32,000 bases of DNA from Dickeya solani IPO 2222 (GCF_001644705.1 NZ_CP015137.1:360001-392000); one strand, 5' to 3'; numbered from the stretch's first letter, positions 1 through 31,648 are shown. Program-made: numbers and translations. Notes: generated by a model not told the origin, from the sequence alone.

Positions 1-428
1 AGCCCCAACTCCGCGGGCGATAACGACTCCGTCGACAACGAGGAGCGCGCCAGAGACGCCACATCCAGTTCAAACGCAACGGTGCCGGTAGTGTCCAGTT
101 CCGCGGTCACTTCACGGCCGCGTTTATCGAGCAGCAGCAGCGTCGGCGCCGAATCTTGCAGAATGTAGGACAGGCGTTCCTGCGGGTAATCCGGGTCGAG
201 CGGCACGTAGGCCCCACCTGCTTTGATGATCCCCATCAGGCCCACCACCATCTCGATACTGCGATCCAGACAGATGGCAACGCGATCGTCCGGTTTAACC
301 CCCTGCTGGCGTAAATGGTGCGCCAGTTGGTTGGACAAGGCATTCAGCTCTGCGTAGCTCAGTTCACGATCGCCAAAGCGCAGCGCCGTTGCCGACGGCG
401 TCAGTTTAACCTGCGCTTCGAACATCTG
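1..428 (-). other. Adenylation domain (N-terminal part only, motifs A1-A2); specificity residues lie outside the window
   Basis: aa ~565-706 read MFEAQVKLTPSATALRFGDRELSYAELNALSNQLAHHLRQQGVKPDDRVAICLDRSIEMVVGLMGIIKAGGAYVPLDPDYPQERLSYILQDSAP. Confidence 0.85.
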
Positions 429-5200: not shown

Positions 5201-8200
5201 CTACTGATACTCTGGTGGAAGTAGCCAAACAGGCGCGCACAAGAAAGCGATTCAATCGCCTGAACGCCAATATCAAACCCATCGCCGAAGTCATCGACAG
5301 AGACAGAGATCGGGTAGTTGGTGCGCTCTTCAAATCCGTGCCATACCACGCCATCAAATTCGATATCACCTAACACATCACTGTCGGTCGGGCGATTGCG
5401 GCGGTAGTTGAACACGGCGCTGAACATCGGCGTCGGCGCCACAATCCCACTACATTGTTGAGCCAGCGACAAGCTGGCATGTTCATGTTTTATCAGCGCG
5501 GTGAGGCGCTGATGCGTCTGGCGAACCGCATCGGCGGCATAACCCTCGCCGACATCAAGACGCAACGGCAGCGTATTGATGCAAGGCCCCATGATTTTAT
5601 CGCTGTTCTCACCGTGCATACGTCCGGACAGGACGGTACCGAACACCACCGTATCGCTGCCGCAGGCAGCGCTCAGGACCCGCGCCCAGCTCAAGTGGCA
5701 CAGACTACTCACGCTTACGCCAAGGCGGCGAGCCTGAGCGCGCAGCCGTTGAGCCAGCGGCGCTTCAAGCGGGCGCCGTGTTTCACTGATCCGCTGGCCT
5801 TTAAGGTGGCCGTTCTTGAGATTAAACGGCACCGACGGTTCGGTGATGTCCGCCAGCATGTCGGTAAAAAACGCCGATTGCTGTTGGGTATCGTGACGTT
5901 GCTGCAACCGCGCCACGTGATGACGAAACGGCAATGCCGCCGGCAAACGCGCGCCTTCGCCATTGAGGAATGCCTGAATGTCGGAGAGCAAAATCTGTAG
6001 TGAGGCAATGTCATCCACCAAATGATGGATATACATCAAGGCTTCCCAGCGGGCCTGTTCTTCATCATAGGCCACCACCATGTGTAGCAACGGCGGCTGC
6101 GTGAGGTCGATGCGGTTGACCTGAGGATCAACGCGCGCCTTCATCTGTTCAACGACCGGGCCATCCTGAGCATCAAAGGTGAGCTCTGCAACGTGCAAGC
6201 GCGCGTGGCGTAGCACGACCTGCACAGGCGTTTCTACCCCTTGCCAGATAAACGCGGTGCGCAAGATATCATGGCGCTCAACAACGTGTTGGATAGCCTC
6301 AAGATAGCGATCCAGGGTCTGCCGGTGCGTAAATGACAGATGACCACACTGAAGGTAAGGGTCGCCGGCTTCATCGAACAGATGGTGGAACAGAATGCCT
6401 TCCTGCAGCGGCGCCAGCGCATAGATATCCTGAATATTGGCGATGCCTCCAGGTATGCGGGTAACGATCTGGTCTATCTGCTGTTGAGAAAGCGACACTA
6501 ACGGGAAAAGCGCGGGATGAAGCGCGGTGGTCGCCGGCGTGACCACATTCTCCGGGATGACGAACGCCGGGGAGGCATCGTCCTCAAGCCTGATTTGCGC
6601 AGCAAGATCGGCCAAAACTGGATGAGCGAAGAGAGTGGGCACATCGGTATACAGTTTCTGCTCACGGAGCGCTGCCTGCAGTTGCATCGCCAGCAGTGAA
6701 TGCCCACCCAGTTCGAAGAAATTGTCCTGCCGCCCGACCTGATCAACGCCGAGCATTGTCCGCCACAGCTGCGCCAGAATAGATTCCGTACCGGCGTTCG
6801 GCGCTTCAAAGTCGCGCTGCACGTAAGCGCTATCGTCCGGTAGCGGCAAGGCCTTACGATCGATCTTGCCATTCGCCGTCAGCGGCAGCGATTCCATCAC
6901 CACAAACGCCGCCGGGATCATATAGTGGGGCAGTTGCGTGGCGAGCACCTCGCGCCATTGCGCAATCGCACCATTACCGCACGCCGCCTCTGGCACTACA
7001 TAAGCCACCAGACGGGCCTCGCCGCTATCCGGCGTAATGCCGATAACGGTAGCGTCTTTGATGTGCTCAAGCGCCGCAATACGCGACTCGATTTCACCAA
7101 GCTCAATGCGATACCCGCTCAGTTTGATTTGGTGATCGCGACGGCCAAGAAATTCAATACGACCATCGTCAAACCAGCGCCCGATATCACCGGTACGGTA
7201 GACTCTGGCTCCGGCAACCCAGGGATCGGCAATAAACTGCTGGGCCGTCAGTTCAGGGCGATTCATGTACCCCACCGCGACGCCCTCGCCGCCGATCCAG
7301 ATTTCACCCGCCATGCCCGGCGCGCAAAGCTGACCCAGATTATCGACCACGTACATACGGGTGTTGGCGATGGGCCGCCCAATACTCAGGCGAGTATCCT
7401 GGCTGTGCTCAAAACCACGCATCCATGCCGACGACATAATGGTGGTTTCCGTCGGGCCGTAACCATTGATGTAACGGCAGCGCTCGCTCCAGCGTTCAAT
7501 CAGCCCAGGCGTCGGCGCTGACCCCGCCGTCAGAATGGTCATGCCTTCAGGCACGCGTGCGGGATCTAAGTGCGTGAGATACGGCGGTGGGAAGGCCGAG
7601 AAACGAATGTCGTGTTCAACCATATACTCCGTCAACGCGGGCGGATTCTGAATCAACGCATTCGACAGCAGATGCAGTTCACAACCGCGCGTCAAGGTAC
7701 CGAAAATCTCGCCCGCTGAGGCATCAAAGGTATAAGGCGCGAACTGGGTGATCGGTTGCCCGGCGCTAAAAATCCCGATGTGTTCGCACCAGGCACAGAA
7801 ATTGATCAGGCTGCGATGCGCTATCTCTACGCCTTTCGGCGTGCCCGTGGTCCCAGAGGTATAGATGATATAAGCAATAGCGTGCGAATCGATGGCCTCA
7901 GAATGGCTATCCTCAGGCTGCTCAGCATCCGTTTGCGCCTGCTCCAGATAATCCTCAACCAACAGCAAGGTGCTGCTTTCGTCCTCGCTAAAACTCGACC
8001 GATCGGCCCGGCTGGTCAGCGTCCAGCGCACTCGCGCATCGTTAATAATGAACGCGCGACGCTCGCCCGGCGCATCCAGGCCGACAGGCACATAAGCAGC
8101 GCCCAGCTTGATGATACCCAGCATGGCCGCGATCAGGTTCGGCGTTTTATCCATACTCAGGACAATACGATCGCCCTGGGTCACGCCGACGCGGCGCAGC

Positions 8201-9126
8201 CCTGCCGCAATCCGTTCGGCGCGTTCGGCAAGCTGCCGATAGCTTAAACGCACATCGCCTGCCACCAGCGCGGTGGCCTCGTTTCTCGCCGCCACTTGCT
8301 CGGCAAACAGAGAATAGAGAGAGCGATCCAACGCCGCATCGAGTTCGGTCGCATTCCACTCATGCATAACGCGTTCGATTTCTGCGTTACTGAGCAGCGA
8401 CTGTTCACCCAGTGTGTGCTCACTGCGCTGTGCAAAGCTGGACAACAGCTGCTGCAGGCGATTGAGAATGTTATGCGCATCTGCCTCGGTCATCTCGCCT
8501 TGGCGGTAATGCAGCGCTAATGACAACGTGACCCCGGTCTGGACAATAAGATGCAGCGGTACGTGCAACCTGTGGCGTTCATTTTCCGAGCCATGCGCAT
8601 CATGCACACTGATCAGCGAGTCGAAAAGCGGTTGATTCGATGGAAAGCCCACACCGTGCGAAAGGACATCAGGCATCAGATCGACATGGCGCTGATGCTG
8701 CTCAAACACTGAGGCAATATCGTTAAACCAGTCGCGCAACGCGAGACCGGCATCAAGATGCATGCGTAACGGCAAGGCGCAGTCTTCACCCCCGTCACGG
8801 GCAGGGAACCGCTTGCCAAACAGGACTTCATCCTCACCGCTGTACTTGCTCAGCAACAGGCTCCATGCCGCCGTCATCAGCACGTCCCATGTGGTGGACT
8901 CACGCTGCACCAGCGCCAGCAGTTCGGTACTCAACGCCTGCTCAACGTGGGAAACGAGCACACGGACTTCCTGCGCAGAGGAGGAGGCGCTCTTGGTATC
9001 CTCGCTCTCAGTGGCATTAACAAGGCTGGCGTTTGCCGTTCTTTGCGCCCCGGTAAGGTATCGCTGCCAATAAGCCGCGGCAGTATCCTTACGCGACAAG
9101 AGCATATTCTCCTGCATGGTAGCCAT
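2224..9126 (-). CDS. Bimodular NRPS: truncated C - A - T - C - A(luciferase-like monooxygenase insert) - T
   Basis: The ORF is 6,903 nt (2,300 aa). ATG 9126 lies 3 nt after the stop of the AT gene, with GAGGGAG upstream. Domain motifs are listed in the sub-features. It ends ...ADLAARTIELAETRL with no TE or R domain. Confidence 0.97.
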   Translation of the reverse strand: MATMQENMLLSRKDTAAAYWQRYLTGAQRTANASLVNATESEDTKSASSSAQEVRVLVSHVEQALSTELLALVQRESTTWDVLMTAAWSLLLSKYSGEDEVLFGKRFPARDGGEDCALPLRMHLDAGLALRDWFNDIASVFEQHQRHVDLMPDVLSHGVGFPSNQPLFDSLISVHDAHGSENERHRLHVPLHLIVQTGVTLSLALHYRQGEMTEADAHNILNRLQQLLSSFAQRSEHTLGEQSLLSNAEIERVMHEWNATELDAALDRSLYSLFAEQVAARNEATALVAGDVRLSYRQLAERAERIAAGLRRVGVTQGDRIVLSMDKTPNLIAAMLGIIKLGAAYVPVGLDAPGERRAFIINDARVRWTLTSRADRSSFSEDESSTLLLVEDYLEQAQTDAEQPEDSHSEAIDSHAIAYIIYTSGTTGTPKGVEIAHRSLINFCAWCEHIGIFSAGQPITQFAPYTFDASAGEIFGTLTRGCELHLLSNALIQNPPALTEYMVEHDIRFSAFPPPYLTHLDPARVPEGMTILTAGSAPTPGLIERWSERCRYINGYGPTETTIMSSAWMRGFEHSQDTRLSIGRPIANTRMYVVDNLGQLCAPGMAGEIWIGGEGVAVGYMNRPELTAQQFIADPWVAGARVYRTGDIGRWFDDGRIEFLGRRDHQIKLSGYRIELGEIESRIAALEHIKDATVIGITPDSGEARLVAYVVPEAACGNGAIAQWREVLATQLPHYMIPAAFVVMESLPLTANGKIDRKALPLPDDSAYVQRDFEAPNAGTESILAQLWRTMLGVDQVGRQDNFFELGGHSLLAMQLQAALREQKLYTDVPTLFAHPVLADLAAQIRLEDDASPAFVIPENVVTPATTALHPALFPLVSLSQQQIDQIVTRIPGGIANIQDIYALAPLQEGILFHHLFDEAGDPYLQCGHLSFTHRQTLDRYLEAIQHVVERHDILRTAFIWQGVETPVQVVLRHARLHVAELTFDAQDGPVVEQMKARVDPQVNRIDLTQPPLLHMVVAYDEEQARWEALMYIHHLVDDIASLQILLSDIQAFLNGEGARLPAALPFRHHVARLQQRHDTQQQSAFFTDMLADITEPSVPFNLKNGHLKGQRISETRRPLEAPLAQRLRAQARRLGVSVSSLCHLSWARVLSAACGSDTVVFGTVLSGRMHGENSDKIMGPCINTLPLRLDVGEGYAADAVRQTHQRLTALIKHEHASLSLAQQCSGIVAPTPMFSAVFNYRRNRPTDSDVLGDIEFDGVVWHGFEERTNYPISVSVDDFGDGFDIGVQAIESLSCARLFGYFHQSISSLVAALEADRVPAAAPMPLYELNILPPEERRHLLKTWNDTAVPFPATATIHQLFERQVEQRPQALALQMGNVRLSYAELNQRANRLAHHLIAQGVRPDTRVAVCTERTETMLVALLATLKAGGAYVPLDPEYPATRLAYILEDATPKVLVLDQRGRDVFGAAAGSDITVVDLARDGARWEALPGGNPDVATLNASHLAYVIYTSGSTGKPKGVMVEHRQVVNFLTGMQALFNLGVEDCLLSVTSISFDIAGLELYLPLMTGASIVLASRSQAMDPHALLNLLHTLNITIMQATPTTWRLLVDTDATPHKQLKILCGGEALPSDLAVRLHAFGESLWNLYGPTETTVWSTCNRVNAEDVTQYNQSIGRPIANTQVYLLDRYGKPVPMGAIGELYIGGDGVARGYHQRPELTAERFIPDPFSTDPAARLYRTGDFAQFMADGRLIFLGRTDHQLKLRGHRIELGEIEARLLSHPWVREAVVVAREDISGETRLVAYVVPGVTEEYVEEALADSDSLDFSLFFFGASSDAVQAYNHYAEVAEFGDKHGFTAVWTPERHFHHVGGLFANPALLSASLLARTRHIQLRPGSVVLPLHDTLCVAEDWSILDNLSNGRVGIGVASGWNKQDFVLAPQNYDERRELMHKGIEELKTLWQGGSVSRRDSHGDEISVRIYPAPVQKQLPIWVTAAGASETFEYAGRSGANLLTHMLTQNIEKLAKNIEIYRTARENAGFDPRTGTVTVMIHTYLGENLNEVLAQAKGPFLDYLEGHLSLLSGWLKEQNIHLDTLPSADKRSMLEFAFKRYTRELSFIGTPESALPVAEKLQEAGVNEVACLIDWIVPENALPALEHAAALKGLVQTLFSRKALRKHLQDALPDYMVPAAFVTLKSLPLTPNGKIDRNALVPPDEMSFARRAYVPPQGSMEITMASIWEELLGVERIGRQDHFFELGGYSLLAVRLIEQLRRRGLSIEIRTLFDTPILADLAARTIELAETRL
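2251..2451 (-). other. Thiolation (PCP) domain T2
   Basis: HFFELGGYSLLAVRLIEQL; the Ser2257 codon is at 2356-2358, checked against the DNA. Confidence 0.9.
2506..5055 (-). other. Adenylation domain A2, predicted glycine-specific, interrupted between A8 and A9/A10 by a monooxygenase domain
   Basis: Motifs are LSYAELN, LKAGGAYVPLDP, AYVIYTSGSTGKPKG, FDIAGLE, NLYGPTETT, GELYIGGDGVARGY, YRTGD and GRTDHQLKLRGHRIELGEIE. About 340 foreign aa follow, then LPDYMVPAAFV and PLTPNGKIDR. The hand-derived Stachelhaus residues (GrsA numbering) are D235 I236 L239 Q278 L299 G301 L322 V330 W331 K517 = DILQLGLVWK. That is one conservative change from the canonical Gly code DILQLGLIWK. Confidence 0.85.
2647..3663 (-). 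other. Luciferase-like (FMN-dependent) monooxygenase (MOx) domain embedded in A2
   Basis: aa ~1822-2160 read LDFSLFFFGASSDAVQAYNHYAEVAEFGDKHGFTAVWTPERHFHHVGGLFANPALLSASLLARTRHIQLRPGSVVLPLHD...GRVGIGVASGW...IPIWVTAAG. This is the typical N-terminal signature of the natural-product LLM domain family found inside NRPS A domains. Confidence 0.85.
5152..6495 (-). other. Condensation domain C2 (full length)
   Basis: Motifs are IQDIYALAPLQEGILFHH, RHDILRTAFIW, MYIHHLVDDIAS (H1034-H1035-x3-D1039), IMGPCINTLPLRLD and FEERTNYPISVSVDD. Confidence 0.92.
6592..6795 (-). other. Thiolation (PCP) domain T1
   Basis: NFFELGGHSLLAMQLQAAL; the Ser810 codon is at 6697-6699, checked against the DNA. Confidence 0.92.
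6847..8319 (-). other. Adenylation domain A1, substrate not assignable
   Basis: Motifs are LSYRQLAERA, IKLGAAYVPV, AYIIYTSGTTGTPKG, FDASAGEIF, NGYGPTETT, GEIWIGGEGVAVGY, YRTGD, GRRDHQIKLSGYRIELGEIE and PLTANGKIDR. The hand-derived specificity residues are D A G A L A G I M K, a code I do not recognise. Confidence 0.88.
8362..9084 (-). other. Truncated condensation-like domain (C-terminal lobe only; no HHxxxDG)
   Basis: aa ~15-255 begin at the YW..L motif (AAYWQRYLTG) that normally follows the catalytic N-lobe. They continue with VLMTAAWSLLLSKYSGEDEVLFG, CALPLRMHL and QPLFDSLISV, then run straight into A1. The ORF starts only 14 aa earlier, so there is no room for an N-lobe. Confidence 0.7.
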
Positions 9127-9129
9127 TGG

Positions 9130-11016
9130 TTATGCTCCCTCTGTGACAACTTGCCTGGAATGGTTTTTTAAAACATTCAGTAAGTTGGATACGCTTTCGG
9201 CGTTCCTGCCGAATTGATTGATGATCGCGCCGTGCTGAAAACGCGCGGCAAATCCGTATTTGATGAAGATTGACAGGGTGCCGGTTGGGCTGAGATCAAC
9301 AAAAAACGCCTCGTTTTTCTCAGCCAACGCCTGCATTAAGCCGTAGAAATCGACGGGCTCGCGCAAGACTCGCCAGAAATACTCGCTATCCCATCGCTCA
9401 ACCGCGGTACTCAACATGGCGGAGTACACCGGCATTGCGGGGGTGTTTTTCGGCAAGGTGTCGACTAAGGCTCGGAAATCGTGCTCGATAGCCGCTATCC
9501 CGGACGAGTGGAAGGGTTGCTCAACCGGCAGCAGCATCGAGATAATCTCCAGTTGCGTCAGGCGTTCTTTGAGAGCCGACAGACTCGCCACATCACCACT
9601 GACCACAAAGTTATTCTGGAAGTTAATGCTGGCTAACTCGGCGCCCTGATAAAGCGCGGCATTCGCGTGGAAGTGCGCCACCGGCGCCAGCACGCTCATC
9701 ATCCCGCCGCCGGCGGTTTTCTTGTGCAGCAGGTGCGCCTGAGACACCACCAGTTTTATGGCGTCATCAAGCGTCAATACACCGGCCACGACAGCCGCGA
9801 TGCACTCGCCCAGGCTGTATCCCAGCACGGCGTCAGGTTCGATCCCTTCTGCTTTGAGCATACCGGTCAGGCTGACGCCAACACTCAGTAACGCCACATT
9901 GGACAGCGCCACATCAGAGAACGGCAGGTGATGGCGGGCGTCGTCATACAGCGCCTCCAGAAGACCGTGGCCGGTGTGTTGACGATACAGAGCGTCACAC
10001 CTGTCCATCTGGCTGCGAAAGGTACTATTACGTCGATACAGTTCACGGCCCATGCCGTAATACTGCGCACCCTGCCCCCCAAACATAAACACCACACGAG
10101 GGTTGGAGGATGGCGTTGTCGGGGCGTCGGCCACGTTTTTTACCGTTGGCTTACCCGGCAACGCCATCGGCTGTGCTTTTATTTTGTCAAACAGGCTGGT
10201 TAGTACCTGCCCTGGCCCGATTTCGTGCTGTTTAACCTCGCCGGACGCCAGCAGCCGCGAGATACTTTCGTACCAACGAACGGGGTGGCTTATCTGGCGC
10301 GTTAACAAGTCAAGATAATCGGTTTCTGGATAATCGAGCGCTGTGTAGTTGGAAATAACCCGCGCATTGAGCGGATTGAAAGTAAAGCGTTGCGCAAATT
10401 GTGCAAACTGCGCTTCGATATCTCGCATATAGCGAGAGTGAAAAGCCGCACTCACGTTTAGCCTGACGTAGCGTGCGCCGGCATCCGTAAACAACGTCTC
10501 GCAGGCAACGATGTCATCATAAAGACCCGAAATAACGATTTGCTGGGCACTGTTGATGTTGGCGATATCAATGCCGCTCAACGGCGACGCCGCGAGGAGC
10601 TCAACGATCTGATGCAGATCGATGCCCACGATGGCGGCCATCGCGCCGCGCGGCGCTTTCGACATCAGCATACCGCGCTCTCTGACCAGCGCGACGCCGG
10701 TTGCAAAATCAAACGCCCCCGCGGCAAACAGCGCGGCAAACTCCCCCAGACTATGACCCGCGTAGCAATCCGGCGCATCCAATCCGCTTTGTCGACTGGC
10801 GAGCACCCCGAGCGCTGAGACAACAAACAACGCTGGCTGGGTGAACATCGTCTCACCCAGCACACCCTGAGGATCGCTGAGGCATAGCTCACGAATGGAG
10901 AAACCGAGGATCTCATCGGCCTCGCTGACGAGCCTGGGGAAACGCTCAAACAGCTCATTCCCCATCCCTTTCTGCTGCGATCCCTGGCCAGGAAATACCC
11001 AAACTGAAGAAGACAT
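9130..11016 (-). CDS. Free-standing tandem acyltransferase (AT-AT) for the trans-AT PKS
   Basis: The track ORF is 9130-11049 and starts at GTG. I prefer ATG 11014-11016 (MSSSVWVFPGQGSQ), which has AGGAG at 11021-11025. It has two FabD-like halves with GHSLGE and GYSLGE nucleophile elbows. Confidence 0.93.
   Translation of the reverse strand: MSSSVWVFPGQGSQQKGMGNELFERFPRLVSEADEILGFSIRELCLSDPQGVLGETMFTQPALFVVSALGVLASRQSGLDAPDCYAGHSLGEFAALFAAGAFDFATGVALVRERGMLMSKAPRGAMAAIVGIDLHQIVELLAASPLSGIDIANINSAQQIVISGLYDDIVACETLFTDAGARYVRLNVSAAFHSRYMRDIEAQFAQFAQRFTFNPLNARVISNYTALDYPETDYLDLLTRQISHPVRWYESISRLLASGEVKQHEIGPGQVLTSLFDKIKAQPMALPGKPTVKNVADAPTTPSSNPRVVFMFGGQGAQYYGMGRELYRRNSTFRSQMDRCDALYRQHTGHGLLEALYDDARHHLPFSDVALSNVALLSVGVSLTGMLKAEGIEPDAVLGYSLGECIAAVVAGVLTLDDAIKLVVSQAHLLHKKTAGGGMMSVLAPVAHFHANAALYQGAELASINFQNNFVVSGDVASLSALKERLTQLEIISMLLPVEQPFHSSGIAAIEHDFRALVDTLPKNTPAMPVYSAMLSTAVERWDSEYFWRVLREPVDFYGLMQALAEKNEAFFVDLSPTGTLSIFIKYGFAARFQHGAIINQFGRNAESVSNLLNVLKNHSRQVVTEGA
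9250..10101 (-). other. AT2: divergent acyltransferase/acylhydrolase-like domain lacking the carboxylate-binding Arg
   Basis: VVFMFGGQGAQYYGMG, GYSLGE (Ser412 in track-ORF numbering), QPFHS. The residue 25 positions after the Ser, which is Arg117 in E. coli FabD, is Gln437 (KLVVSQAHLL). Confidence 0.75.
10150..11007 (-). other. AT1: malonyl-CoA:ACP transacylase-type domain
   Basis: VWVFPGQGSQQKGMG, GHSLGE (Ser100), Arg125 at the FabD Arg117 position (LVRERG), and an AAFHS (xAFH) malonyl-type motif. Confidence 0.85.
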
Positions 11017-11087
11017 AACTCTCCTATTACTGTTCCCGAGGACTGTCACTTAACGTTGCTTGTTTATCCCAACAGCGACTCGCTAGT

Positions 11088-11357
11088 TCAGGACTTGATC
11101 TCTTCAGCCGGTAGATGGGCTTCAATGGTGCCGACCAGATCCCCGAGCGTGTAAATACCGCGCTTGTCACCGTCGTTTACCTTGATGTGGAGCCGCTTCT
11201 CAATCTCGTACCAGGACTCAAGCATCTCGATCGAATCCACACCCAGCTCACCGCCGATAAATGAATCCAGGTCCACGACATCAGGGGTAAACCCGGTATT
11301 TTTGATGCCGTTAATAATGTCGAGAACAACGGAGAGAATGTCTTTCTGAGCGTCCAT
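11088..11357 (-). CDS. Discrete acyl carrier protein (89 aa)
   Basis: The phosphopantetheine site is GELGVDSIEMLE; the Ser42 codon at 11232-11234 was checked in the DNA. AAGGA lies 8 nt upstream of the ATG, and the gene starts 24 nt after the AOS stop. Confidence 0.9.
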   Translation of the reverse strand: MDAQKDILSVVLDIINGIKNTGFTPDVVDLDSFIGGELGVDSIEMLESWYEIEKRLHIKVNDGDKRGIYTLGDLVGTIEAHLPAEEIKS

Positions 11358-11381
11358 TTCTGATTTCCTTCAGCTAATCCA

Positions 11382-12626
11382 TTAGAGCGCGTCAAACTCG
11401 CGCGCAACCTCAGTGATAATGTCAACAACTTGATCGATCTCTTCCCGGGTATGGGAAGACATCACGGAGAGACGCAGACGTTCTTTATCAGGAGGGACCA
11501 TCGGGTATTCCATGATGTTGGCGAACACACCACGTTCAAAAAGACGGCGGTTTATATTGCCCACCACGGAGATTTTCCCGAAGAAGACGGGAATGATCCC
11601 GGACTCTCCGCGAAGAATGTTGAAGCCTTTCGATTCCAACTGGTCCTGCATGTAGCGCACGTTGTCATGCAGGCGCTCAATGCGTTCCGGCTCGCGTTCC
11701 ATCACGTCCAACGCCGCGGAAATAGCCGCAATCGTCGGCTGCGCTAAACCCGAGGTAAACAGATAAGGATAAGAGAAGTTTCGCAGCATAAAGATGTGTT
11801 CACGGCTGCCGGAGATGAAAGCGCCCTGAGCGCCCAGTGATTTGCTGCAGGTGGACATACGCAAATCAACCTGGCCCAGCAGGTCTAAATGCTCAAGCGT
11901 TCCCTTGCCGGTTCGCCCCAAGGTGCCCAAACCGTGAGCATCATCGAGAATGGTGATGATGTCGTGCGCCCGGCAGATATCGATGTAACGCTTGAGATCG
12001 ATGGTCGAGCCGTCCGTAGAACGCACGCCTTCCACAGTGGAAAATATTTGCGTATGAGGTTTCGAACGCGCCCGAATTTTAGGCAACATCGCCTCAAACT
12101 CATCCAGGCGCTCGGGATCGAAGGTAAAGAACGGCACGTTGGTCATTTTGACCGCGTTGATCACGCTGGCATGGCTGTTCTGGTCATAGATGATGATATC
12201 GTTACGATTCATCAGTCCATTCACCCAGCACAGGTTTGCCATATAACCGCTCGGCAGCAGCACCGCGTCTTCGTGGCCTGCTAACGCCGCCAGACGCGTC
12301 TCAAGATCCCGATGTTGCCTGGTGTAACCGGAAAATGCCGGCGACCCGCCGGTGCCAATACCGTATTTTTCTACCGCTTCGACCACTTTGCTTTTCACGT
12401 AAGGATGGTTAGCCAGACCGAGATAGCTGTTTGAACCAAACACCAATACATTTCTGAAGTCGTCGCTATGCAGGTCTTTGTACTGCATGCGCGCATCAAC
12501 CGGCCCCACGCCCTGGCGTCCGAACATGAAGCCTTTTTCCAGCTCTTTCAAATAGGTGTCATAGCGTAATTTCACGCGTTCCTTGAAAGGCTTACGTTCA
12601 AGTTCGATCAGATCATGAAAATCCAT
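11382..12626 (-). CDS. PLP-dependent alpha-oxoamine synthase (BioF / KBL / serine palmitoyltransferase family), 414 aa
   Basis: Family motifs are FGSNSYLGL (aa 63-71), NSHAS (His152), ILDDAHGLG (Asp228, His231) and MSTCSKSLGAQGAF with the Schiff-base Lys262 (codon 11841-11843 checked). AGGAGG lies 8 nt upstream of the ATG. Confidence 0.92.
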   Translation of the reverse strand: MDFHDLIELERKPFKERVKLRYDTYLKELEKGFMFGRQGVGPVDARMQYKDLHSDDFRNVLVFGSNSYLGLANHPYVKSKVVEAVEKYGIGTGGSPAFSGYTRQHRDLETRLAALAGHEDAVLLPSGYMANLCWVNGLMNRNDIIIYDQNSHASVINAVKMTNVPFFTFDPERLDEFEAMLPKIRARSKPHTQIFSTVEGVRSTDGSTIDLKRYIDICRAHDIITILDDAHGLGTLGRTGKGTLEHLDLLGQVDLRMSTCSKSLGAQGAFISGSREHIFMLRNFSYPYLFTSGLAQPTIAAISAALDVMEREPERIERLHDNVRYMQDQLESKGFNILRGESGIIPVFFGKISVVGNINRRLFERGVFANIMEYPMVPPDKERLRLSVMSSHTREEIDQVVDIITEVAREFDAL

Positions 12627-12651
12627 TATAAAAACCTCCTTGATTATTGAT

Positions 12652-12668
12652 TCTCTCTCAGAGAGAGA
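12652..12668 (-). other. Perfect (TC)n/(GA)n hairpin in the SDR-AOS intergenic spacer
   Basis: TCTCTCTCAGAGAGAGA forms a 7-8 bp perfect stem with a minimal loop. It lies between the SDR stop (12678-12680) and the AOS Shine-Dalgarno (12635-12640). No U tract follows it. Confidence 0.6.
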
Positions 12669-12677
12669 TTCCGATTG

Positions 12678-13667
12678 CTAAGGCGCAATAAAACCGTTGG
12701 CCCGATACCAGGAAACGCACTCCTCCACCATCTGGCTTAAGGAGGAAGGCTTATAGCCCAGCTCACGCTCTGCCTTGGCGCTGCTAAAGTAATAAACCCC
12801 ACCGAAGACACGCAGACGATAGGCATCCAGCACCGGTTCGCCGCGCACCAGCCAGGGCAACTTTTCCTGAAGCAGGGTTTTCAGATAGAAAGACGAATAA
12901 TGGGTCTTAGGCAGATCAACCTTGCACGGCACGACCGATTCAATGGTGTTGATAAGCTCGGTATAGCGAGCATTCGCCCCCGCAATCAGGTAGCGCTCGC
13001 CTGAGTTTCCTTTGGTTAAGGCGCTGACGTGCGCGTCACCGACATCACCCGCGCCGCAAAAACTGGCACCGCCCGGGGGCAGGAACGGCAACTGGTTATA
13101 GTTCACCGCCAGCACCATGCGCCCCCACTGCATTGAATAGTCGTAGGCACCCAGCACTTCCGTCGGGTTCAGAATGACGGCGGACAAGCCGCGATCGCAG
13201 GCGCGGTACACCAGCTCCTCAGCGAGCAATTTACTTTTGGCATAAGGGTTTTTCGCGCGAAAACCCGCCAGCGCGGTCTCTTCGGTCGCTTCGGCGGCGG
13301 GGTCGTTATGCGCCCCGATCGTCGAGCTGGTACTGGTATACACCAGACGCGACACCCCGCATGCCAGCGCCGCCTCAATCACCGAGCGCGTCCCTTCAAC
13401 ATTGACCGCTGCCAGCAGCGGCCAGTCACGGGCGTTGCTGCTGGTATTGCCTGCGGTATGAATCACCCCGTCGTGCCCGGCCATCGCCGCTCGCAGGCGC
13501 TGGTTATCATGCAATTCGCCGCGCACCAGCGTGACGCCGAACGATTCCAGAAAGCTCACGTTGGATGACGCTCGCACATACGCCGTGACCTGATGTTTGG
13601 CGGCGACCAAGGCTTTTATAACGTTGAGCCCAACAAATCCGTTTGCTCCGGTGATCAGTATTTTCAT
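12678..13667 (-). CDS. NAD(P)-dependent extended short-chain dehydrogenase/reductase (epimerase/dehydratase fold), 329 aa; candidate ketoreductase
   Basis: MKILITGANGFVG (TGxxGxxG), a Ser-rich TSTSS strand, and PYAKSK (Tyr142-x3-Lys146). Its ATG 13665-13667 overlaps the PKS TGA 13664-13666 (ATGA). Confidence 0.9.
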   Translation of the reverse strand: MKILITGANGFVGLNVIKALVAAKHQVTAYVRASSNVSFLESFGVTLVRGELHDNQRLRAAMAGHDGVIHTAGNTSSNARDWPLLAAVNVEGTRSVIEAALACGVSRLVYTSTSSTIGAHNDPAAEATEETALAGFRAKNPYAKSKLLAEELVYRACDRGLSAVILNPTEVLGAYDYSMQWGRMVLAVNYNQLPFLPPGGASFCGAGDVGDAHVSALTKGNSGERYLIAGANARYTELINTIESVVPCKVDLPKTHYSSFYLKTLLQEKLPWLVRGEPVLDAYRLRVFGGVYYFSSAKAERELGYKPSSLSQMVEECVSWYRANGFIAP

Positions 13668-16600
13668 GGTGTTTGGTCTTGCTGATTAAGTTTTTCAAGC
13701 GTTTTCAGGAAGGCCTTGCGCCCTTCCCCTTTGCTGCGCATAGGAAGCGCCGCCGGATTTTTATCCGGATGGTTGGCGATCCCTTCAAGCAGAATCACGA
13801 ACTGCTCAAGCAGTTGATCTAGCTGCGCTATCTGGGTGTCCATCCCCCGGCAGTCAAGACGTAAAAGCACACTGTGCGCCTCAACGCTGACCACCAGCGC
13901 CACATGCAGCCCAGGTTGAACGGCAAAGAGCGCGGAGATGGCCTCGCTCAAACCGGCCTCGTCGCCGTCAGTCAGCAGAGCAACCGCGCTATCAAACAGC
14001 GGCGCATCGCCAACCCAGCGCTCAATCCGCTCAAGCGTGGCCCCGGTATGGTCGAAACATTTTTCAAGCTGTGTTTCAACGCCTTTGAGCCAAAGCGCGG
14101 TCTTGTGGCGCCCAACCACCTGAATACGCGCGGGTATCATCTGAAGATGTTCATCATTAACATGCCGGATCAGGCCGAACTGGGAATACTTGCCCCGCGC
14201 ATGGCGATTGGTGAGAAGCGCCCAGCCAGCGGCCATCAGCGTCTCAACGGAGATCGCCTGACGTTGGGTACAGATTTGCAGGGCCGCCACCGTGTCCCGA
14301 TCGATTCGCCGCTCCACGGACAGCGTTTGCGGTGCGGAGGCTTCGGCATCCTGAACCTCTGCGCCGCCAAGCAGCACCGAAGCCATCAACGCGCCGACCT
14401 CGTCTTGGGCATGCGGTTCTTGGGCATGCAGTTGCTCAACCCAGAACGCCTGCAATTGCTCATCGTCTAGCGCGTCCACGTTGCGTTCATTCCGCGGGCC
14501 GGCAAACCATGCCTGCGGTACGGTAGGGGTAGGCGCGGCATCAGGAGCAGGTAGCGCAGCTAATTCGTTGTGGCGTGTTTGCCGCTGCGGTGCGTCAAGG
14601 CGCAGCGCGGCGTAAAGATCGCAGGGTTCTTTCGCAAAGGGGTAGCCGGGGAAAGCCACGCGACGACGTACTGCCTCGTGGTGTAACAGGCTCCAGTCAA
14701 TGTCGCAGCCACGACTCCACAGAGTGGCGACTTTGGCGAGCTGCTGCGTTTGCACCAATACATGAATAAAGTGCTTACCCGCCTCGCCGGCGATCAGCTG
14801 CGGGACATCTTTGGTTTCACGCACGTTGCCGCGATAAATATCCAGCTTGCTATGCTCAGAGGCAGGGTGAGCAATAAAGCACTCCAGTTTCGTCAGCAGA
14901 TCATCAATACTCGTCGCCACGATAGCCAACCGATGATCAAGCGTGACACGCCCAATCTGGCTGGTGTAGGCCAGGTCAGCGAGATGAAGCGCACTCCCCT
15001 GTTGCTTAATAAAGTCACGCATCTCGACGGCATACGCCGCCAAACGCTCCGCCCGATGCGCCGACAACACCACTATCTGCGGGCTGTTCTCCGCGTTATC
15101 CCTGGCGACAAGTGTTTGGTCACTATTTCGCATGAGCACGTCCTCGGGGGACTCAACCACCACAAATGCGGTAGAACCGCCCATGCCATAGGCGTTAATC
15201 CCTGCCAAACGCGTGCCTCTGGCATTGGTGCGCCATTCCTGCGCCTCGCGCGGGAACAGGAACGCAGACGTTTCATGCTCGAACGACGTGTTGACACGAT
15301 CAAGGTTGACACAAGGCGACAGACGGCCGTGCTGCATGCTCAGCAGCACCTTAATCAATGAACAGATGCCCGATGCCGCTTCCATGTGCCCAAGGTTGGC
15401 CTTGGTTCCCAACGCGCAAAAATGTTGCGCGTGAGTCTGGCGACGCAGCGCGTTGGACAGCGCCTTCAGTTCAATCGGATCGCCCAACTCGGTCGCCGCA
15501 CCGTGGCTTTCGATATACGTCAGCTCGTTAACGTCGATACGCGCCTCGTCCAGCGCCCGAACGGCGGTCTCCTCCATCACGGCCAGATTCGGCAAATATT
15601 GCCCCGCCCCCGTGCCCGCATGGCCGATGCTTGAACCGCGCAGCACGCCATAGATATGGTCGCCATCCGCCAGTGCGGTGCTCAGGCGTTTCAGTACCAC
15701 CATGCCGCTGCCTTCGCTTGGAATCAGGCCATTGGCGCGCTCATCGAAGGTGTGCTCCTTGCCGTCCGAAGAGAGCACGTTCATCTCCTGGAGCAGCATA
15801 TATTTGCTTGGGTGAAGGCTAAGATTAATGCCGCCGGCGAGCGCCATATCACACTCACCACCGAGAATGGCCTTACGTGCGATGTGCACGCTCGTCAGCG
15901 ATGACGCACAGGTGGTGGCAACGCAGAAACTGGGGCCGCGCAGATTCATCAGGAACGAAATGCGATTCGCCAGCTCACTGACGACAGAACCCGCCCCCGG
16001 ATATCGACCCGTGCGGGCATAAAGCTCGGCCATGACCCAGGTGAAATCTTCATTCATCGCGCCGACATACACGCCCACTTGCTGAGACGTGAGCGCTGAC
16101 GGGGTGTAACCGGCGTTCTCCAGGGCATGCCAGGCGGAGCGCAACAAAACACGCACCTGAGGATCGAGACGACTGGCTTCATCACTGCTCATACGGAACA
16201 TCTCTGGATCAAAGACATTCACGTTGTTGAGGAAACCACCGCGATTCACGTAACGCGGATTGCCGTTATCGTCCGGCGAAATAGCCCAACGCGCATTCGG
16301 GATCGTAGTCAGGCTCTCTTTGCCCGCCTGAATATCCGCCCAGAAATCCGCCAGATTCTCGGCGCCGGGGAACTCGCCCGCCACACCGATAATCGCCACG
16401 GCGTCACTGGCGGCATTCACACTGGTTGATAACGATGAGCGGGCAGCATGCGAACCCAAGGTATTCGTGGGCGCGTTAGGCATCGCCCGTTTAACATAAG
16501 GCGCGGCAGCGGCAGCGCCGGCGTGATGGCTATTCACCGTCGCTGCGGTACGACGCGGCGGCGTCTCTGCCGACACCTGCTGGCTCTCCTGCGTTGCGCC

Positions 16601-19600
16601 ATAACGCTCGCACAGATATCCGGCCAGTTTAGCCGTGGTATTAAACTCAAACGGCGCCGTTTTCGGCAGTCCGTCATACTCTTTCTCAAGCACGGCGCGT
16701 AACTCCATCAGCATGATGGAATCCATACCTAACTGCTCAAAGGTGGCATCCGCAGCGATATCGCCGGCAGGAAGCTTGGTGATGGTCGAAATACGCTCCC
16801 TCAGCGCGTTCTCGCTCTGCATGTAGGCGCTGTCGCTGGGCCGCGTCGGCTCAACGGCATGTTGCTTACTGGCCGCGACATTCACGCGCGCCGGCGGTGC
16901 AGAGCGCGCCACCTCATCGGCCTGAATACGCAGGGCACGGGCAATCTTGTTGCGGTCCCCAACCACAATCAGCAATTCAGGGCGTTGTTCGAGTAGCGCG
17001 CGTTCGAGGGCGATAAGGCCGGCCTCCTGGTCCAATGCCGCCATGCCGGAGAACGCAAACAGGGTGGCATCCTCTTGTTCGATGTTCATCTGACCACTGG
17101 CCCACAGCGGCCAGTTGATAGAGATAGTCTGACCGGCACGCCGCCCTTTTTTAACCAGGTTGCTGCGCCATACCGCATGGCTATCCATAAAGCGATTACC
17201 TGCGGCGTAAGCACCTGAACCCAAATCGCCGAGCACGGCTGAAACGGAAGAGAAGTTGACGAAAACGGAGAGCGGCTCCTGCGCCGTAGCGCGGTCAAGG
17301 GCCACCAGACCGTCTATCTTCGGTCCAATCAGCGCGTAAAATTCAGCATCTTGCAGTGCGGTCATCGGTGTTGCGCTAGCGACGCCCGCGCAATGCAACA
17401 CGCCATCCAATGCGCCGAATTCGGCTTTGGCTTGCGCAATCAACGCGTCAGCCTGCCCCTCTAGCGCTACATCCGCGGCGATATAGCGCACCTCGGCGCC
17501 TTGCTCGCGCATAGCAACCAGTTGCTGCTGCACGGCATCACCGGGCTGGGCCGAACGGCCGCTCAACACAATACGGGCCTGATAGCGGGATGCCAGATAG
17601 TTGGCCACCAGCAGCCCCAGCTTGCCGGCGCCGCCGGTAATCAAATAATGACCGTGACGGACGAAATTCAGGCGCTCATCACTCGTCGAGCCGTCTGTTT
17701 TGGGGGGCACAATTTCGCCAAGCTGACGCTGGTAGCGTTTTCCACTCCGGTAGGCCAACTCTAATCCGGCAATCGGGGCAGGACGCGGTACGAACTCCAG
17801 ATGAATATGGGAGGCAAGCGCCGCAGCGCTATCCGCATCGCTACGCAATGTGAACAGCTCGAAGCGATGGTTAATCGTCGACAACGAGCGTGCATATCCA
17901 CTTGCCGCATCGTGTTGCGGCTCGACCTGATCAGGCGGTGCGGTATAGACGTTAACGCAGCGTAGCGCTTGCCCCGGTGTTACCGTTTCCAGCGCCACAA
18001 ACAGGTTACGTAACGACTGCAATCCGGCATGCAATAACGGCGCGACACCAACGGCTGGGAAGTCATCAAAGTGCTTATCCGCGCCGATTGCATGCACGAT
18101 GTGGGTAGGCCACATCTGCTGTGCGGCCAACTGCTCACACAATGTCTGTACGCTGGCTTGAGATTGCATATCGGCGCTGAATCGGCAGGCATCGTGCTGG
18201 GCAAACGCGTTTGCCTGCGTAACGGCAATCACGCGTGCTGAATCACCGTAAAGCGCGCGTAACGCCTCAGCCAACGCGTCGTCATCGCTGAGCACCAACA
18301 CCTGTATCGCCGCGGAACTCACCGCTGTAACCGAGGTGGTTTCCGGCAGTGGCGATGCCTGCCACTCATAGGCATAGTACTGCACGTCTTGTGACGTCAT
18401 TGGCTGTGCCGTACTGGTATCACTCTCCAGCGTACGTGCGGCGAAGTCTTTCAGGCGCGCCAGCACCCGACCAGTAGTATCCACCAGCGTAATATCGTGC
18501 TTTTGAATCGGGCCGCCCAGACTCTGGCCCGACACACTCGATTGCGCTGGCGTCACATAGGCATAGCACTCTGTGCCGAGCGGATGGCGAAACTCCAGCT
18601 CACCGAGGAAGAACGGCACAATCGGCGTTGAATAGTCAGACGGCTCCAACCCTACCGCCAGACAGGTACGCAGCGCGCCGTCTAACAGCGATGGATGCAG
18701 ATAAAACGCATCAGCGGAACGTACCGCATCGGGCAGGCACAAATGACTTAGCGCAGAGTCAGCAAAGCGGTAACGCTCACGCGTCACCTGATAGCTCGGG
18801 CCATAGGCAAAACCCATTTTGGCAAAATCAGCATAGATAGCCGCCTGATCGCTTTCGTGTTTGCCGCGGTTACGCAGCGCGTCAAGATCGATCCATTCAT
18901 CGGCAATCTCGGTAGTTTTCGGGCGATAAACCAATTCCGCTTCTAGCGAGAGCACATCGGTATGGCGGTTACAGATCGCCACCTGCACGCTTTCGCCATC
19001 CGAGTGCGCCAGGTCGATTTCAACCTCCACCGGCTCGTCGTCCACCTCGATGGCGTTCATCCACATCAGGTTGCGAATAGCCCCCACGGCCCACTCGTTT
19101 CCAATCGCCAGTTGGCCCGCAGCGTGCATCATTTCGATATAGGCCGAGCCGGGTAAGATCACCCGCGCATCAGCGCTGCCAACCACATGGTCACGCAGAT
19201 AGGGCTCCTGCCCGGTCAGCTGTTTGATAAATTTCTGCTGCGACAGCGTGGAGGTGTTCTCGTCAATCAACGGGTGCAGCGATTTAACGCGGTGTGATTC
19301 GCCTGGTTCCGAAGGCAGAGCCAGCCAATGGCTGCGCATCATCAGCGGCAAAGAAGGGAATGAAACCCGACGCACCGCATGGTCTGCAAAGAGTAACGGC
19401 GCGACCTGTTGCCAGTTCACATCCAGCATCGTGGTCCACAAGCGGCCCAAACGCAGAAGCTGGCGTTCTTGTACCAAGCCGGTCACCAGCTCATCAAGCT
19501 GCCTGCCTTCAAGGATGGTATCCAGACGTTCGCTGCTGCCGGCGACACGCCCACGAAACAGCTGTTTCGCCGCGCCGTCCTGCCGGTATTGCTCAAGCTG

Positions 19601-29740: not shown

Positions 29741-30315
29741 TATTCACATCCATATGTTTATTATTTATCGCAATAACTGATGTCATTTGAGCGTCCGAAT
29801 AGCCTTTTGAATGGCTGGCTCATTAGCAGGTCAACAAATTTGATATTCCATTACCATTAAATAAACAGCTTTAATGGATATTGCATCAAAATCATTCGCA
29901 CATCTAATACAATTCGATTCTTTTTTTTGTCAGGATGTTACTCACCCCTCCAATAGATCAGCATAAAACAAACAAACTTAATATCAATTATTTGATTTAT
30001 ATGATTTTTTAAATGAAACAAAAAAACACAATTTACGATATAACCAGAATGAAAAATCATAAATAATAAATTTCACTAATGAAATCACGGAGTGCAAATA
30101 TTATTTAAAATATTATCTGTCGATTCTTAATTAAACACCTTGCCATTCTTGAAAGCATATCCGCGCCAAACAATTCGTCATATAAAATTCATTAAATAGT
30201 CATTTAAATGTCATAAAAAATAACAATCAGCATTACTTAGCCAACGAAGATTACATTGTCACCTGACTTCATAAACATTAATTCCGTACTTTGAATTTAA
30301 TTTAAAAATATAGTT
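29741..30315 (-). promoter_or_regulatory. AT-rich (about 20-30% GC) upstream region of the PKS operon; probable promoter and regulatory (silencing) region; no specific -35/-10 called
   Basis: Hand counts of 60-nt lines give 28% GC at 29941-30000 and 20% at 30001-30060, against 53-62% inside the operon. It contains A/T tracts, the 10-bp palindrome CATTTAAATG (30201-30210) and AATATTAT-TTAA-AATATTAT (about 30098-30117). The only -35/-10 candidates I found are weak. Confidence 0.55.
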
Positions 30316-30541: not shown

Positions 30542-30803
30542 TTCGAAAAACGTTCATTCATTGCGACATCACCCGTTCTTTGACCGCGCATCATACCCGG
30601 TGGGCATAGACACAGGTTCTACCGCTCGGTAACAGCGCTGCACAAGAATCTTATTTATTCGATAAAACTGGGTTGAGGGTGGAATAATTTTATTTGTTCA
30701 GCCAACGCCAGTCAGCTACCATAAAAATGGCTGCCATTATTAGTGGTGGCAAATCGTTATTAATTTTCACTTCTGATGAAAGCATATTTAAAATGGAGTC
30801 ATT

Positions 30804-31520: not shown

Positions 31521-31580
31521 GTTTTTCATGGACTAAACAGTCCGGGATGCAGGTGGAGCACTGTGGGATTTGCTGGAACG

Positions 31581-31607: not shown

Positions 31608-31648
31608 CAACGATCCACAGACTCCGATGGAACTCTGCAGATCAAATT

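Follow-up and report, generated by a model that had tools for sequence, protein, structure and literature searches.

Gene organisation and identity of the locus

The stretch of DNA analysed here, referred to as the window, comprises 32,000 nucleotides of the genome of Dickeya solani IPO 2222 (GCF_001644705.1, NZ_CP015137.1:360001-392000), and our analyses centre on three consecutive genes at positions 11,088 to 13,667, which code for a predicted short-chain dehydrogenase/reductase (SDR), a predicted alpha-oxoamine synthase (AOS) and a free acyl carrier protein (ACP). They belong to an operon-like array on the minus strand that takes in all the real genes of the window, among them those of a polyketide synthase (PKS) served by an acyltransferase (AT) in trans and of a nonribosomal peptide synthetase (NRPS):

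13664..29740, minus strand: solA, trans-AT PKS (5358 aa; dissected with Pfam on 10 overlapping pieces)
12678..13667, minus strand: solB, predicted extended SDR (329 aa)
11382..12626, minus strand: solC, predicted AOS (414 aa)
11088..11357, minus strand: solD, putative free ACP (89 aa)
9130..11016, minus strand: solE, trans-acting didomain of an AT and a putative acyl hydrolase (AT-AH; 628 aa)
2224..9126, minus strand: solF, NRPS (2300 aa)
1..2120, minus strand: 5' part of solG, a serine module whose condensation (C) domain carries HHLIDD (706 open codons from the ATG at 2120)

The last of these genes continues beyond the start of the window. The SolB, SolC and SolD sequences have exact protein matches in D. 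solani genomes, and the sizes (5358, 329, 414, 89, 628 and 2300 aa), gene order and domain strings of solA-solG are those of Table 1 in PMC9765074, which gives SolA as KS-DH-KR-T-KS-DH-T-T-KS-DH-KR-T-KS and SolF as A-P-C-A-ox-P (KS, ketosynthase; DH, dehydratase; KR, ketoreductase; T, thiolation; A, adenylation; P, peptidyl carrier). The three genes are therefore the published solB, solC and solD, and the window is the already published solanimycin (sol) cluster of D. solani, covered from solA to solF together with the 5' part of solG. The sol genes inspected in this study were those of the window.

The cluster has been reported to be expressed as a single transcript (PMC9765074). The start codon of solB (13667) overlaps the TGA stop of solA within caccATGAaaa, and among the genes of the operon solB alone shows no purine stretch resembling a Shine-Dalgarno sequence within the 30 nt checked ahead of its start, such runs being present ahead of solC (AAGGAGG), solD (GAAGGAA), solE (AGGAG), solF (GAGGGAG) and solG (GGAGGA). 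Because solB has no such sequence of its own, this arrangement fits translational coupling to solA. The mechanical open reading frame (ORF) of solE starts at a GTG (11049, 639 aa), but the ATG at 11016, with AGGAG ahead of it, yields the 628 aa of the published protein and is probably the real start. A first interpretation of this DNA made without database searches (hereafter the sequence-only reading) had described an SDR, an AOS and an ACP gene coupled to the PKS; the ORF calls recovered the three genes and their ATGA overlap as described, a motif scan located every AOS and ACP motif it had quoted at the residue given, and profile matches agreed with the classes it had given to the SDR and the AOS and, less strongly, with that of the ACP.

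SolC is predicted to be an alpha-oxoamine synthase, not a transaminase

The SolC sequence carries SNSYLGL at residue 65, His152 (NSHAS), DDAHGLG at residue 228 (with Asp229 and His231), Lys262 in STCSKSLG and, towards its C-terminus, the carboxylate-binding Arg motif RLRLSV at residue 383. Against NCBIfam it matched the models for BioF, KBL, the BioF/Kbl subfamily, three types of serine palmitoyltransferase (SPT), ALAS and CqsA over nearly the full profile, at E values of between 1e-86 and 1e-52 (bioF 3.3e-86, KBL 8e-86, BioF/Kbl family 2.7e-85, SPT 4.8e-84, ALAS 1.8e-60, CqsA 5.7e-54). No transaminase model was present among its 14 NCBIfam matches, and a faint likeness to threonine aldolases was found at E values of about 1e-7 to 1e-8. 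Solved structures of the family (7poa/8s1y, 3a2b and 1fc4) scored 209-220 bits, residues 55-411 of SolC aligning with the Thermus AOS (7poa), the Sphingobacterium SPT (3a2b) and E. coli KBL (1fc4), with Lys262, His152, Asp229, His231, SNSYLGL and RLRLS in register with all three.

Despite these similarities, SolC remained below every NCBIfam equivalog cut-off, both for the housekeeping enzymes (bioF, 289 vs 426; KBL PRK06939, 288 vs 460; TIGR01822, 249 vs 493) and for SPT (SPT-CFB, 282 vs 640; SPT-beta, 257 vs 500; SPT-alpha, 176 vs 670). Its identity is 31% with E. coli Kbl, 26% with BioF and 33-34% with the Thermus AOS and SPT. In a neighbour-joining tree it was placed in a separate clade of its own and did not cluster with housekeeping BioF/KBL, a clustering that the sequence-only reading had named, together with complementation of a bioF or kbl mutant, as refuting its assignment. 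The low scores, the low identity to Kbl and BioF and the separate clade together indicate a dedicated AOS, and the assignment of SolC to housekeeping BioF/KBL or to SPT was rejected on the curated cut-offs and the tree.

In publications SolC is labelled an aminotransferase or transaminase (PMC9765074). This name traces to PF00155, a Pfam umbrella family, and arises because that family takes in AOS enzymes as well; some databases name SolC orthologues 'PLP-dependent acyltransferase', 'glycine C-acetyltransferase' or '8-amino-7-oxononanoate synthase' (PLP, pyridoxal 5'-phosphate). The word 'oxoamine' is absent from both solanimycin papers (PMC9765074, PMC10204066). On all the sequence criteria applied, SolC is a full and dedicated AOS belonging to a distinct and highly conserved clade, and the published label appears to be mistaken. 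We infer that it would catalyse a Claisen condensation between an amino acid and an acyl thioester.

SolB and SolD

SolB contains TGANGFVG at residue 6 (TGxxGxxG) and Y142AKSK146 (YxxxK), and its Pfam matches were to extended-SDR families only (Epimerase 1.1e-35, 3Beta_HSD 1e-28), adh_short, the family of the classical SDRs, not being matched. Its best NCBIfam matches (HpnA, SdmB and OleD) were all under their cut-offs, and a weak likeness to thioester-reductase or 'male sterility' domains was also found (TIGR01746 3e-21, PF07993 1.5e-17). By its profile matches, SolB is an extended SDR of the NAD-dependent epimerase/dehydratase, 3beta-HSD type, and it would correspond in function to the 3-ketodihydrosphingosine reductases (KDSR, Fum13, SphF) without belonging to their family. 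It is likely to act as the 3-ketoreductase of a 2-amino-3-oxo intermediate. A role as the missing KR of a PKS module was rejected, given that the solB mutant still yields the complete hexaenoyl chain.

SolD is annotated as an ACP in D. solani and appears to be a divergent, type II-like member of this class, with Ser42 in GVDSIEM as the predicted phosphopantetheinyl site. Its NCBIfam ACP match (8.6e-9) was under the cut-off, Pfam PP-binding was reached at just 0.018, and residues 3-79 matched fatty acid synthase and AcpM carrier proteins in the PDB at about 7e-6. A SolD homologue accompanies the AOS in every PKS-type locus examined, and SolD is likely to be the carrier that presents the polyenoyl thioester to SolC, the partner of the terminal KS of SolA, or both.

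Published genetics and chemistry of solanimycin

In-frame deletion of solB, solC or solD abolishes antifungal activity in each case (PMC9765074), in line with the involvement of SDR and AOS in making the cluster metabolite, and with the importance of the free ACP, that the sequence-only reading had anticipated. The published partial structure of solanimycin A is Ths-Gly-Dha5-NH-R2, where Dha is dehydroalanine, Ths stands for beta-(tridecahexaenyl)serine, the 2-amino-3-hydroxy C16 hexaenoic acid found at the N-terminus, whose C1 carbonyl is amide-linked to Gly, and R2NH2 is C15H29NO5, made up of valine and acetate-derived carbons. Since the Ths carbonyl is joined to Gly, this unit has to keep its carboxyl group and to be supplied to the NRPS as an acyl or aminoacyl donor.

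Mutants accumulate different compounds: the aminomethyl ketone tetradecahexaenoyl-CH2NH2 in the solB mutant, tetradecahexaenal (the C14 aldehyde) in the solF mutant and nothing identifiable in the solC mutant (PMC10204066). The aminomethyl ketone (R-CO being tetradecahexaenoyl) is exactly the acyl chain plus a glycyl unit minus CO2, and this shunt product, R-CO-CH2NH2, is the one expected from an AOS reaction; an amino-ketone shunt had been predicted for an SDR mutant by the sequence-only reading and was thus already in print. Feeding with [2H2]- and [1,2-13C2]-glycine placed heavy label in Gly and, through serine, in the five Dha residues, and almost none in the end groups. The P450 SolI has been found to be essential (PMC9765074).

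These data also dispose of three other roles or donors for the AOS. Serine or alanine as the SolC donor was rejected, as either would yield C16 amino-ketones and not the C15 shunt product, and serine was rejected also because it is heavily labelled from glycine. A condensation with valine to form the C-terminal amine was rejected because an AOS would strip the alpha-deuteron, yet d8-valine is incorporated with all eight deuteriums kept, and the carbon count equals valine plus five acetates.

Flanking domains of SolA, SolE and SolF

Pfam dissection of SolA gave the string KS-DH-KR-ACP-KS-DH-ACP-ACP-KS-DH-KR-ACP-KS4, followed by a truncated C-like tail, with no AT, loading module or thioesterase (TE). 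The domains of SolA and SolF that bear on the first residue are the following:

15302..16405, minus strand: KS4, terminal KS of SolA without an ACP of its own, with TTCASS (Cys), HGAAT (His) and NLGH (His)
13760..14461, minus strand: C-terminal tail of SolA, half C-like (Condensation profile 192-439, E 0.0089, below cut-off)
8374..9090, minus strand: N-terminal half C domain of SolF (Pfam Condensation 1.4e-12, profile 191-453 only, without HHxxxDG)
6865..8307, minus strand: first A domain of SolF (A1), specificity code DAGALAGIMK
6595..6777, minus strand: first peptidyl carrier protein domain of SolF (PCP1), carrier of the first residue (Pfam PP-binding)
2224..6432, minus strand: module 2 of SolF, C-A-PCP, A code DILQLGLVWK (Gly), with an inserted luciferase-like monooxygenase

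The Cys/His/His triad is kept in KS4 and in 30/30 orthologous terminal KSs, and the terminal KS is therefore probably catalytically active. In related loci this domain never has its own ACP and a free ACP is encoded nearby. With the triad intact and solD essential, service of KS4 by a free ACP is plausible, as is the extension by KS4 onto SolD that the sequence-only reading had put forward. The first catalytic-His motif of KS4 varies among the loci compared: HGAAT is restricted to enterobacterial clusters (Dickeya, Rouxiella, Pantoea and Erwinia; the window and L002-L005), while the other genera (L006-L036) have mostly the canonical HGTGT, with HGTAT in L025 and L026 and HGAGT in L034, the His being always there. 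A third ACP-like repeat follows the tandem ACPs of module 2 (21242-21511, SolA aa about 2745-2830), in which the Ser is replaced (LDTINL vs LDSMMIL) and which does not figure in the published domain strings; it looks like a degenerate carrier domain.

No HHxxxDG motif was found in SolA by the motif scan. The SolA tail is a weaker copy of the N-terminal C half of SolF, and across related loci it is conserved yet fast-evolving; in one Xanthomonas locus a weak match (28% identity) links the two halves, which might serve for docking or as a scaffold between PKS and NRPS. In SolE, the second AT-like half has GYSLG in place of GHSxG, which is consistent with an acyl hydrolase.

As the half C domain that opens SolF is without HHxxxDG, module 1 of SolF can be regarded as a starter module, and module 2 agrees with the published Gly/hydroxy-Gly residue. 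A1 is listed in published work without a predictable substrate. It retains Asp235 (alpha-amino-binding) and Lys517 (carboxylate-binding), and its pocket positions are Gly or Ala, which implies a deep hydrophobic pocket; the mapping of these positions is validated by the canonical codes that the same mapping yields for neighbouring A domains. We propose that A1 may activate the free 2-amino-3-hydroxy polyenoic acid, Ths.

Conservation of the cassette across Proteobacteria

Species-representative genomes were scanned for the cassette, no Dickeya locus being among those recovered, and in a protein search SolC homologues numbered 862 at E<=1e-30 among the candidates scored. A syntenic block of KS4, C-terminal region with C-like tail, SDR, AOS, ACP, AT-AT and NRPS was found in about 30 of the genomes fetched, from at least six genera; two loci (L029 and L030) differ in that their AT-AT is placed upstream of the SDR. 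Such synteny greatly exceeds what chance would give. The AOS is 83-90% identical to SolC in Serratia, Rouxiella, Pantoea and Erwinia and 66-77% identical in Lysobacter, Xanthomonas, Collimonas, Paraherbaspirillum, Thermomonas, Cellvibrio, Gynuella and others, and the protein search gave 67-96% identity across genera within the SolC clade. No other protein of the block is nearly as well conserved, as illustrated by Lysobacter enzymogenes (L006), where identity amounts to 77% for the AOS, 63% for KS4, 59% for the SDR, 57% for the AT, 56% for the ACP and 37% for the tail.

The specificity code of A1 is conserved with the cassette. A code family DA[GA]A[LM]A[GA][IV][LM]K was recovered in 23 cassette-bearing loci, in A domains that are just 35-49% identical outside Enterobacterales, and it persists where overall identity drops to 35-37%; the adjacent A domain in cassette loci varies, with canonical Gly, Ser, Phe and Val codes. 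A DAxAxA-type A domain was not found within the 10-kb flank in L018, L019, L024, L029 and L030. Co-occurrence of cassette and code is strong, though perhaps not universal. In L012 the DAxAxA-type A domain is second, not first.

Our literature search found no characterised product for the homologous clusters of Lysobacter or Collimonas. Lysohexaenetide is reportedly made by an iterative PKS, that is, by a cluster different from the sol type.

A proposed route to the first residue

Taken together, the observations lead us to propose, with a probability of roughly 0.6, that solB, solC and solD build Ths, the first residue of solanimycin, with SolC acting as an AOS, SolB reducing its product and A1 of SolF re-activating the free acid. 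SolA, with the trans-acting AT of SolE and a carrier, probably SolD served by KS4, would deliver a tetradecahexaenoyl thioester. SolC would form a PLP-stabilised carbanion from a two-carbon amino-acid unit and add it to the thioester in a Claisen condensation, freeing the carrier and giving 2-amino-3-oxo-hexadecahexaenoic acid with its carboxyl kept. Two kinds of condensation would retain this group: a decarboxylative one with aminomalonate, as in the fungal SphA and MyrA, or a KBL-like non-decarboxylative one with glycine. Because the AOS reaction consumes the thioester, its product would be a free amino acid, off the carrier. SolB would then reduce the 3-ketone to the 3-alcohol, and A1, as its conserved code and the module architecture suggest, would adenylate free Ths and load it onto PCP1, after which the NRPS would be colinear with the peptide, Ths-Gly-(Ser to Dha)x5-Val.

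The shunt metabolites can be accommodated by the same scheme. 2-Amino-3-ketobutyrate decarboxylates spontaneously to aminoacetone; likewise, without SolB the beta-keto acid would lose its carboxyl group spontaneously to give the observed aminomethyl ketone. The tetradecahexaenal of the solF mutant would be a retro-aldol product of accumulated Ths, released together with glycine, and the C14 aldehyde has not been reported from the solC mutant, which fits such an origin. The core idea of the sequence-only reading, an AOS acting on a PKS-bound thioester and an SDR reducing the resulting amino-ketone, is in this way supported by the SolC sequence and the solB-mutant shunt.

Several points weigh against our proposal. 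The authors of the feeding study concluded that C1, C2 and N of Ths are not glycine-derived; with end groups almost unlabelled by glycine, and serine labelled through glycine, free glycine and serine are disfavoured as SolC donors, although the isotopologue tables of the supplement alone do not decide whether the N-terminal unit carries glycine label. Aminomalonate, or a glycyl unit from another precursor such as threonine, is a possible donor, but no aminomalonate-forming genes and no threonine-type glycyl source are evident in the part of the cluster within the window. Free Ths was not reported to accumulate in the solF mutant. The scheme also gives the essential P450 SolI no role, a C14 hexaene needs more extension cycles than the three and a half modules of SolA, and the builder of the acetate-derived C-terminal part is left unexplained.

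Alternative explanations

In the model that Murphy et al. 2023 put forward, one malonate is added by a PKS module without KR to give a C16 beta-keto thioester, SolI oxidises C-2 to a ketone, SolC acts on this ketone as a transaminase with PLP and its pyridoxamine form (PMP), SolB reduces C-3, and the ACP-bound acyl chain passes to SolF. This model accounts for an N-terminal unit unlabelled by glycine and labelled by acetate and for the requirement for SolI (PMC9765074), and a KS without KR or DH, with its Cys/His/His triad intact as in KS4, could with a free ACP give the beta-keto thioester. SolC nevertheless answers to an AOS on every sequence criterion, and none of the profiles it matched is that of a transaminase. 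The model further requires that a P450 carry out a four-electron oxidation on a beta-keto thioester and that an enzyme of AOS fold then transaminate the product, a sequence for which we know of no precedent; it leaves A1 jobless despite an alpha-amino-acid-type code strongly conserved alongside the cassette, and it does not explain the absent half of the SolF C domain. Mutants in the consecutive enzymes SolI and SolC should moreover be alike, and just the solI mutant was reported as orange, a weak argument as the pigment lists may be incomplete. We regard this explanation as unlikely, though it deserves more weight than the others considered below.

SolB might instead act first, as a thioester reductase giving tetradecahexaenal, to which SolC would add a PLP-bound glycyl carbanion in the manner of a threonine transaldolase, for example with threonine as donor, to form Ths; in the solB mutant SolC would attack the thioester instead and give the aminomethyl ketone. 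That the aldehyde is a real metabolite, the weak likeness of SolB to thioester-reductase domains and the faint one of SolC to threonine aldolases are all compatible with this order of events, and a threonine donor would account for the negative glycine labelling. AOS enzymes, however, use thioesters, SolC is a full AOS by its profile matches (E 1e-86) and not a member of the serine hydroxymethyltransferase/aldolase family, and the aldehyde should build up in a solC mutant, from which none was reported, all of which makes this an improbable scheme. Hardly more credible, and if anything less so, is the release proposed in the sequence-only reading, in which SolC off-loads the chain decarboxylatively as an alpha-amino ketone, SolB reduces this to a 2-amino-3-ol and the NRPS product N-acylates the amine. 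The identities of AOS, SDR and ACP and the aminomethyl ketone of the solB mutant agree with it, and the extra terminal C domain of SolH could in principle acylate an amine (PMC9765074). The position of Ths contradicts it, in that tandem mass spectrometry puts the C16 amino-hydroxy unit N-terminal with its own carbonyl on the Gly nitrogen, the y ion is H3N+-CH2-CO-Dha5-R2, and the C-terminal amine holds the fully deuterated valine and carbons fitting valine and five acetates. Finally, the names glycine C-acetyltransferase or 8-amino-7-oxononanoate synthase given to some orthologues might suggest that SolC is a housekeeping BioF/KBL, or a sphingolipid SPT, adjoining the PKS by chance; its scores under the curated cut-offs, its low identity to Kbl and BioF, its separate clade, its constant embedding in a PKS/NRPS block and the loss of the antibiotic on solC deletion leave this with a negligible probability.

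Additional observations on the cluster and related loci

Three plus-strand ORFs at 315-1943 (145, 203 and 153 aa) had seemed to occupy the place expected of solG and to recur between NRPS genes elsewhere, but were rejected as genes, being antisense shadows of solG; their 'homologues' in other loci are likewise antisense to NRPS C domains. Just upstream of solA (29741-32000) the GC content drops from ~0.53-0.60 to 0.375-0.41, and neither of the two ORFs in this part (30804-31307 and 31547-31810) matches a Pfam family; the region is likely to be an island boundary or the promoter region of a horizontally acquired cluster. The solC-solD stretch (11001-13000) has a GC content of 0.516-0.517, below that of the flanking PKS and AT genes (0.56-0.59), which together with the high conservation of SolC hints at a separate history of the AOS or at a stronger constraint on it.

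In Rouxiella badensis DSM 100043 (L003, CP114060.1, ~6200-15800) the matches to KS4, ACP, AT-AT and A1 are split across frames, through either pseudogenisation or sequencing errors. Lipid-export-type genes share the AOS locus in three cases: MMPL/RND and LolA-like genes after the AT-AT in Cellvibrio (L028, 13497-17046), MMPL/RND, LolA-like and DUF1302 genes after the ACP in a Burkholderiaceae metagenome-assembled genome (MAG; L029, 11588-16615), and genes for an ABC ATPase, an FtsX permease and a LolA-like protein before the AOS in Chitiniphilus (L033, 6588-9878). This gene content suggests that these variants may make lipid-like products destined for the outer membrane. Within the SolC clade, the members furthest from SolC (L031-L033 and L035; Burkholderiales MAG, Chitiniphilus and Lautropia), at 56-64% identity, lack a neighbouring PKS, SDR or ACP as well as an A domain of DAxAxA code, and lie downstream of two A-T-C NRPS modules; in L033, the locus of this group examined in detail, the AOS adjoins an acyl-CoA-dehydrogenase-like gene. 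In these loci a SolC-type AOS is probably put to another use.

Relation to known systems and significance

The closest parallels to the proposed route are found in fungi. In sphingofungin and myriocin biosynthesis (PKS SphB/MyrB, AOS SphA/MyrA and reductase SphF/MyrF), as later papers describe it, a TE-less PKS is likewise off-loaded by an AOS, SphA and MyrA carrying out a carboxyl-retaining condensation via aminomalonate to a 2-amino-3-oxo acid which SphF and MyrF reduce to the 2-amino-3-hydroxy acid; SphA, like SolC, is termed an 'aminotransferase' in its literature. The fungal PKS is however iterative and highly reducing, whereas SolA is a bacterial trans-AT enzyme; the fungal reductase is a classical KDSR-type SDR, whereas SolB is extended and epimerase-like; and the fungal product forms the backbone of the end product, whereas that proposed for sol would be re-loaded onto an NRPS. 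SolC is also distant from SphA (83 bits vs PDB 9pep). Stand-alone AOS release followed by reduction by a cluster SDR is similarly seen in Pseudomonas fluorescens MYb115, with the iterative type I PKS SgaA, the AOS SgaB and the SDR SgaC, but SgaB is SPT-like and uses serine decarboxylatively to form sphinganines, which are amines, whereas the sol product keeps its carboxyl and becomes a peptide residue; SgaA is a monomodular cis-AT enzyme without NRPS, in contrast to the trans-AT PKS and NRPS of sol.

The proteobacterial sphingolipid module (SPT, AcpR, acyl-ACP synthetase and CerR) resembles sol in combining an AOS with an adjacent dedicated ACP and a reductase. The comparison with SPT, ACP and ketoreductase drawn in the sequence-only reading is accordingly apt as an analogy, but membership in SPT does not hold, SolC failing all three NCBIfam models of that enzyme; in addition, the sol acyl donor comes from a PKS and not from an acyl-ACP synthetase, and the product is an amino acid of secondary metabolism and not a membrane lipid base. 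KBL performs formally the chemistry proposed for SolC, condensing an acyl thioester with glycine to a 2-amino-3-oxo acid without decarboxylation, the product then being reduced to a beta-hydroxy-alpha-amino acid, and KBL structures are among the best PDB matches of SolC (209 bits). Against a closer kinship stand the limited identity to E. coli Kbl and the scores under the KBL cut-offs already mentioned; glycine feeding argues against a glycine donor, and no similarity could be detected between SolB and E. coli Tdh.

Fum8, SxtA and PigH/RedN likewise off-load an acyl chain from its carrier by a PLP-dependent Claisen reaction, decarboxylatively and giving amino-ketones. To our knowledge, no AOS of such systems operates within a trans-AT PKS. 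A full-text literature search found no paper on a trans-AT PKS with an oxoamine synthase, and AOS-type domains in NRPS and PKS have been catalogued (PMC3870968). The sol cluster itself, the genetic need for solB, solC and solD and the logic of AOS off-loading followed by ketoreduction are thus already known. What appears to be new is the reassignment of SolC, AOS off-loading in a trans-AT PKS/NRPS hybrid, the proposed relay of a free amino acid to a dedicated A domain and the wide distribution of cassette and code.

The structure and the biosynthesis of solanimycin, a potent antifungal of broad spectrum, have been solved only in part. Reading SolC as an AOS would put one well-precedented C-C bond-forming step in place of a P450 double oxidation and a transamination, would explain both published shunt metabolites, would give A1 a substrate and would make the NRPS colinear with the peptide. 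It also brings out that the glycine-labelling data are in genuine conflict with such a step, a conflict that points to another amino donor. At the level of the family, we tentatively suggest, with less confidence than for solanimycin itself and somewhat short of even odds, that a PKS to AOS to SDR to A domain relay may be general in the PKS-linked loci of the large proteobacterial SolC clade, the AOS ending the trans-AT PKS line by making free long-chain or polyenyl 2-amino-3-oxo acids that keep their carboxyl and are possibly aminomalonate-derived, and the reduced amino acid being handed to the NRPS. If this is true, the relay through an A domain with the DA[GA]A[LM]A[GA][IV][LM]K code would define a family of lipopeptides that begin with a beta-hydroxy amino acid at the N-terminus, the P450/transaminase route published for the first residue would be overturned, and SolC-type enzymes could represent the first bacterial use of aminomalonate by an AOS. 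The reading of SolC as an AOS would itself extend AOS chain release to trans-AT PKS/NRPS hybrids, and it supplies a recognisable A-domain code with which Lysobacter, Xanthomonas, Collimonas, Cellvibrio and others could be mined for related clusters.

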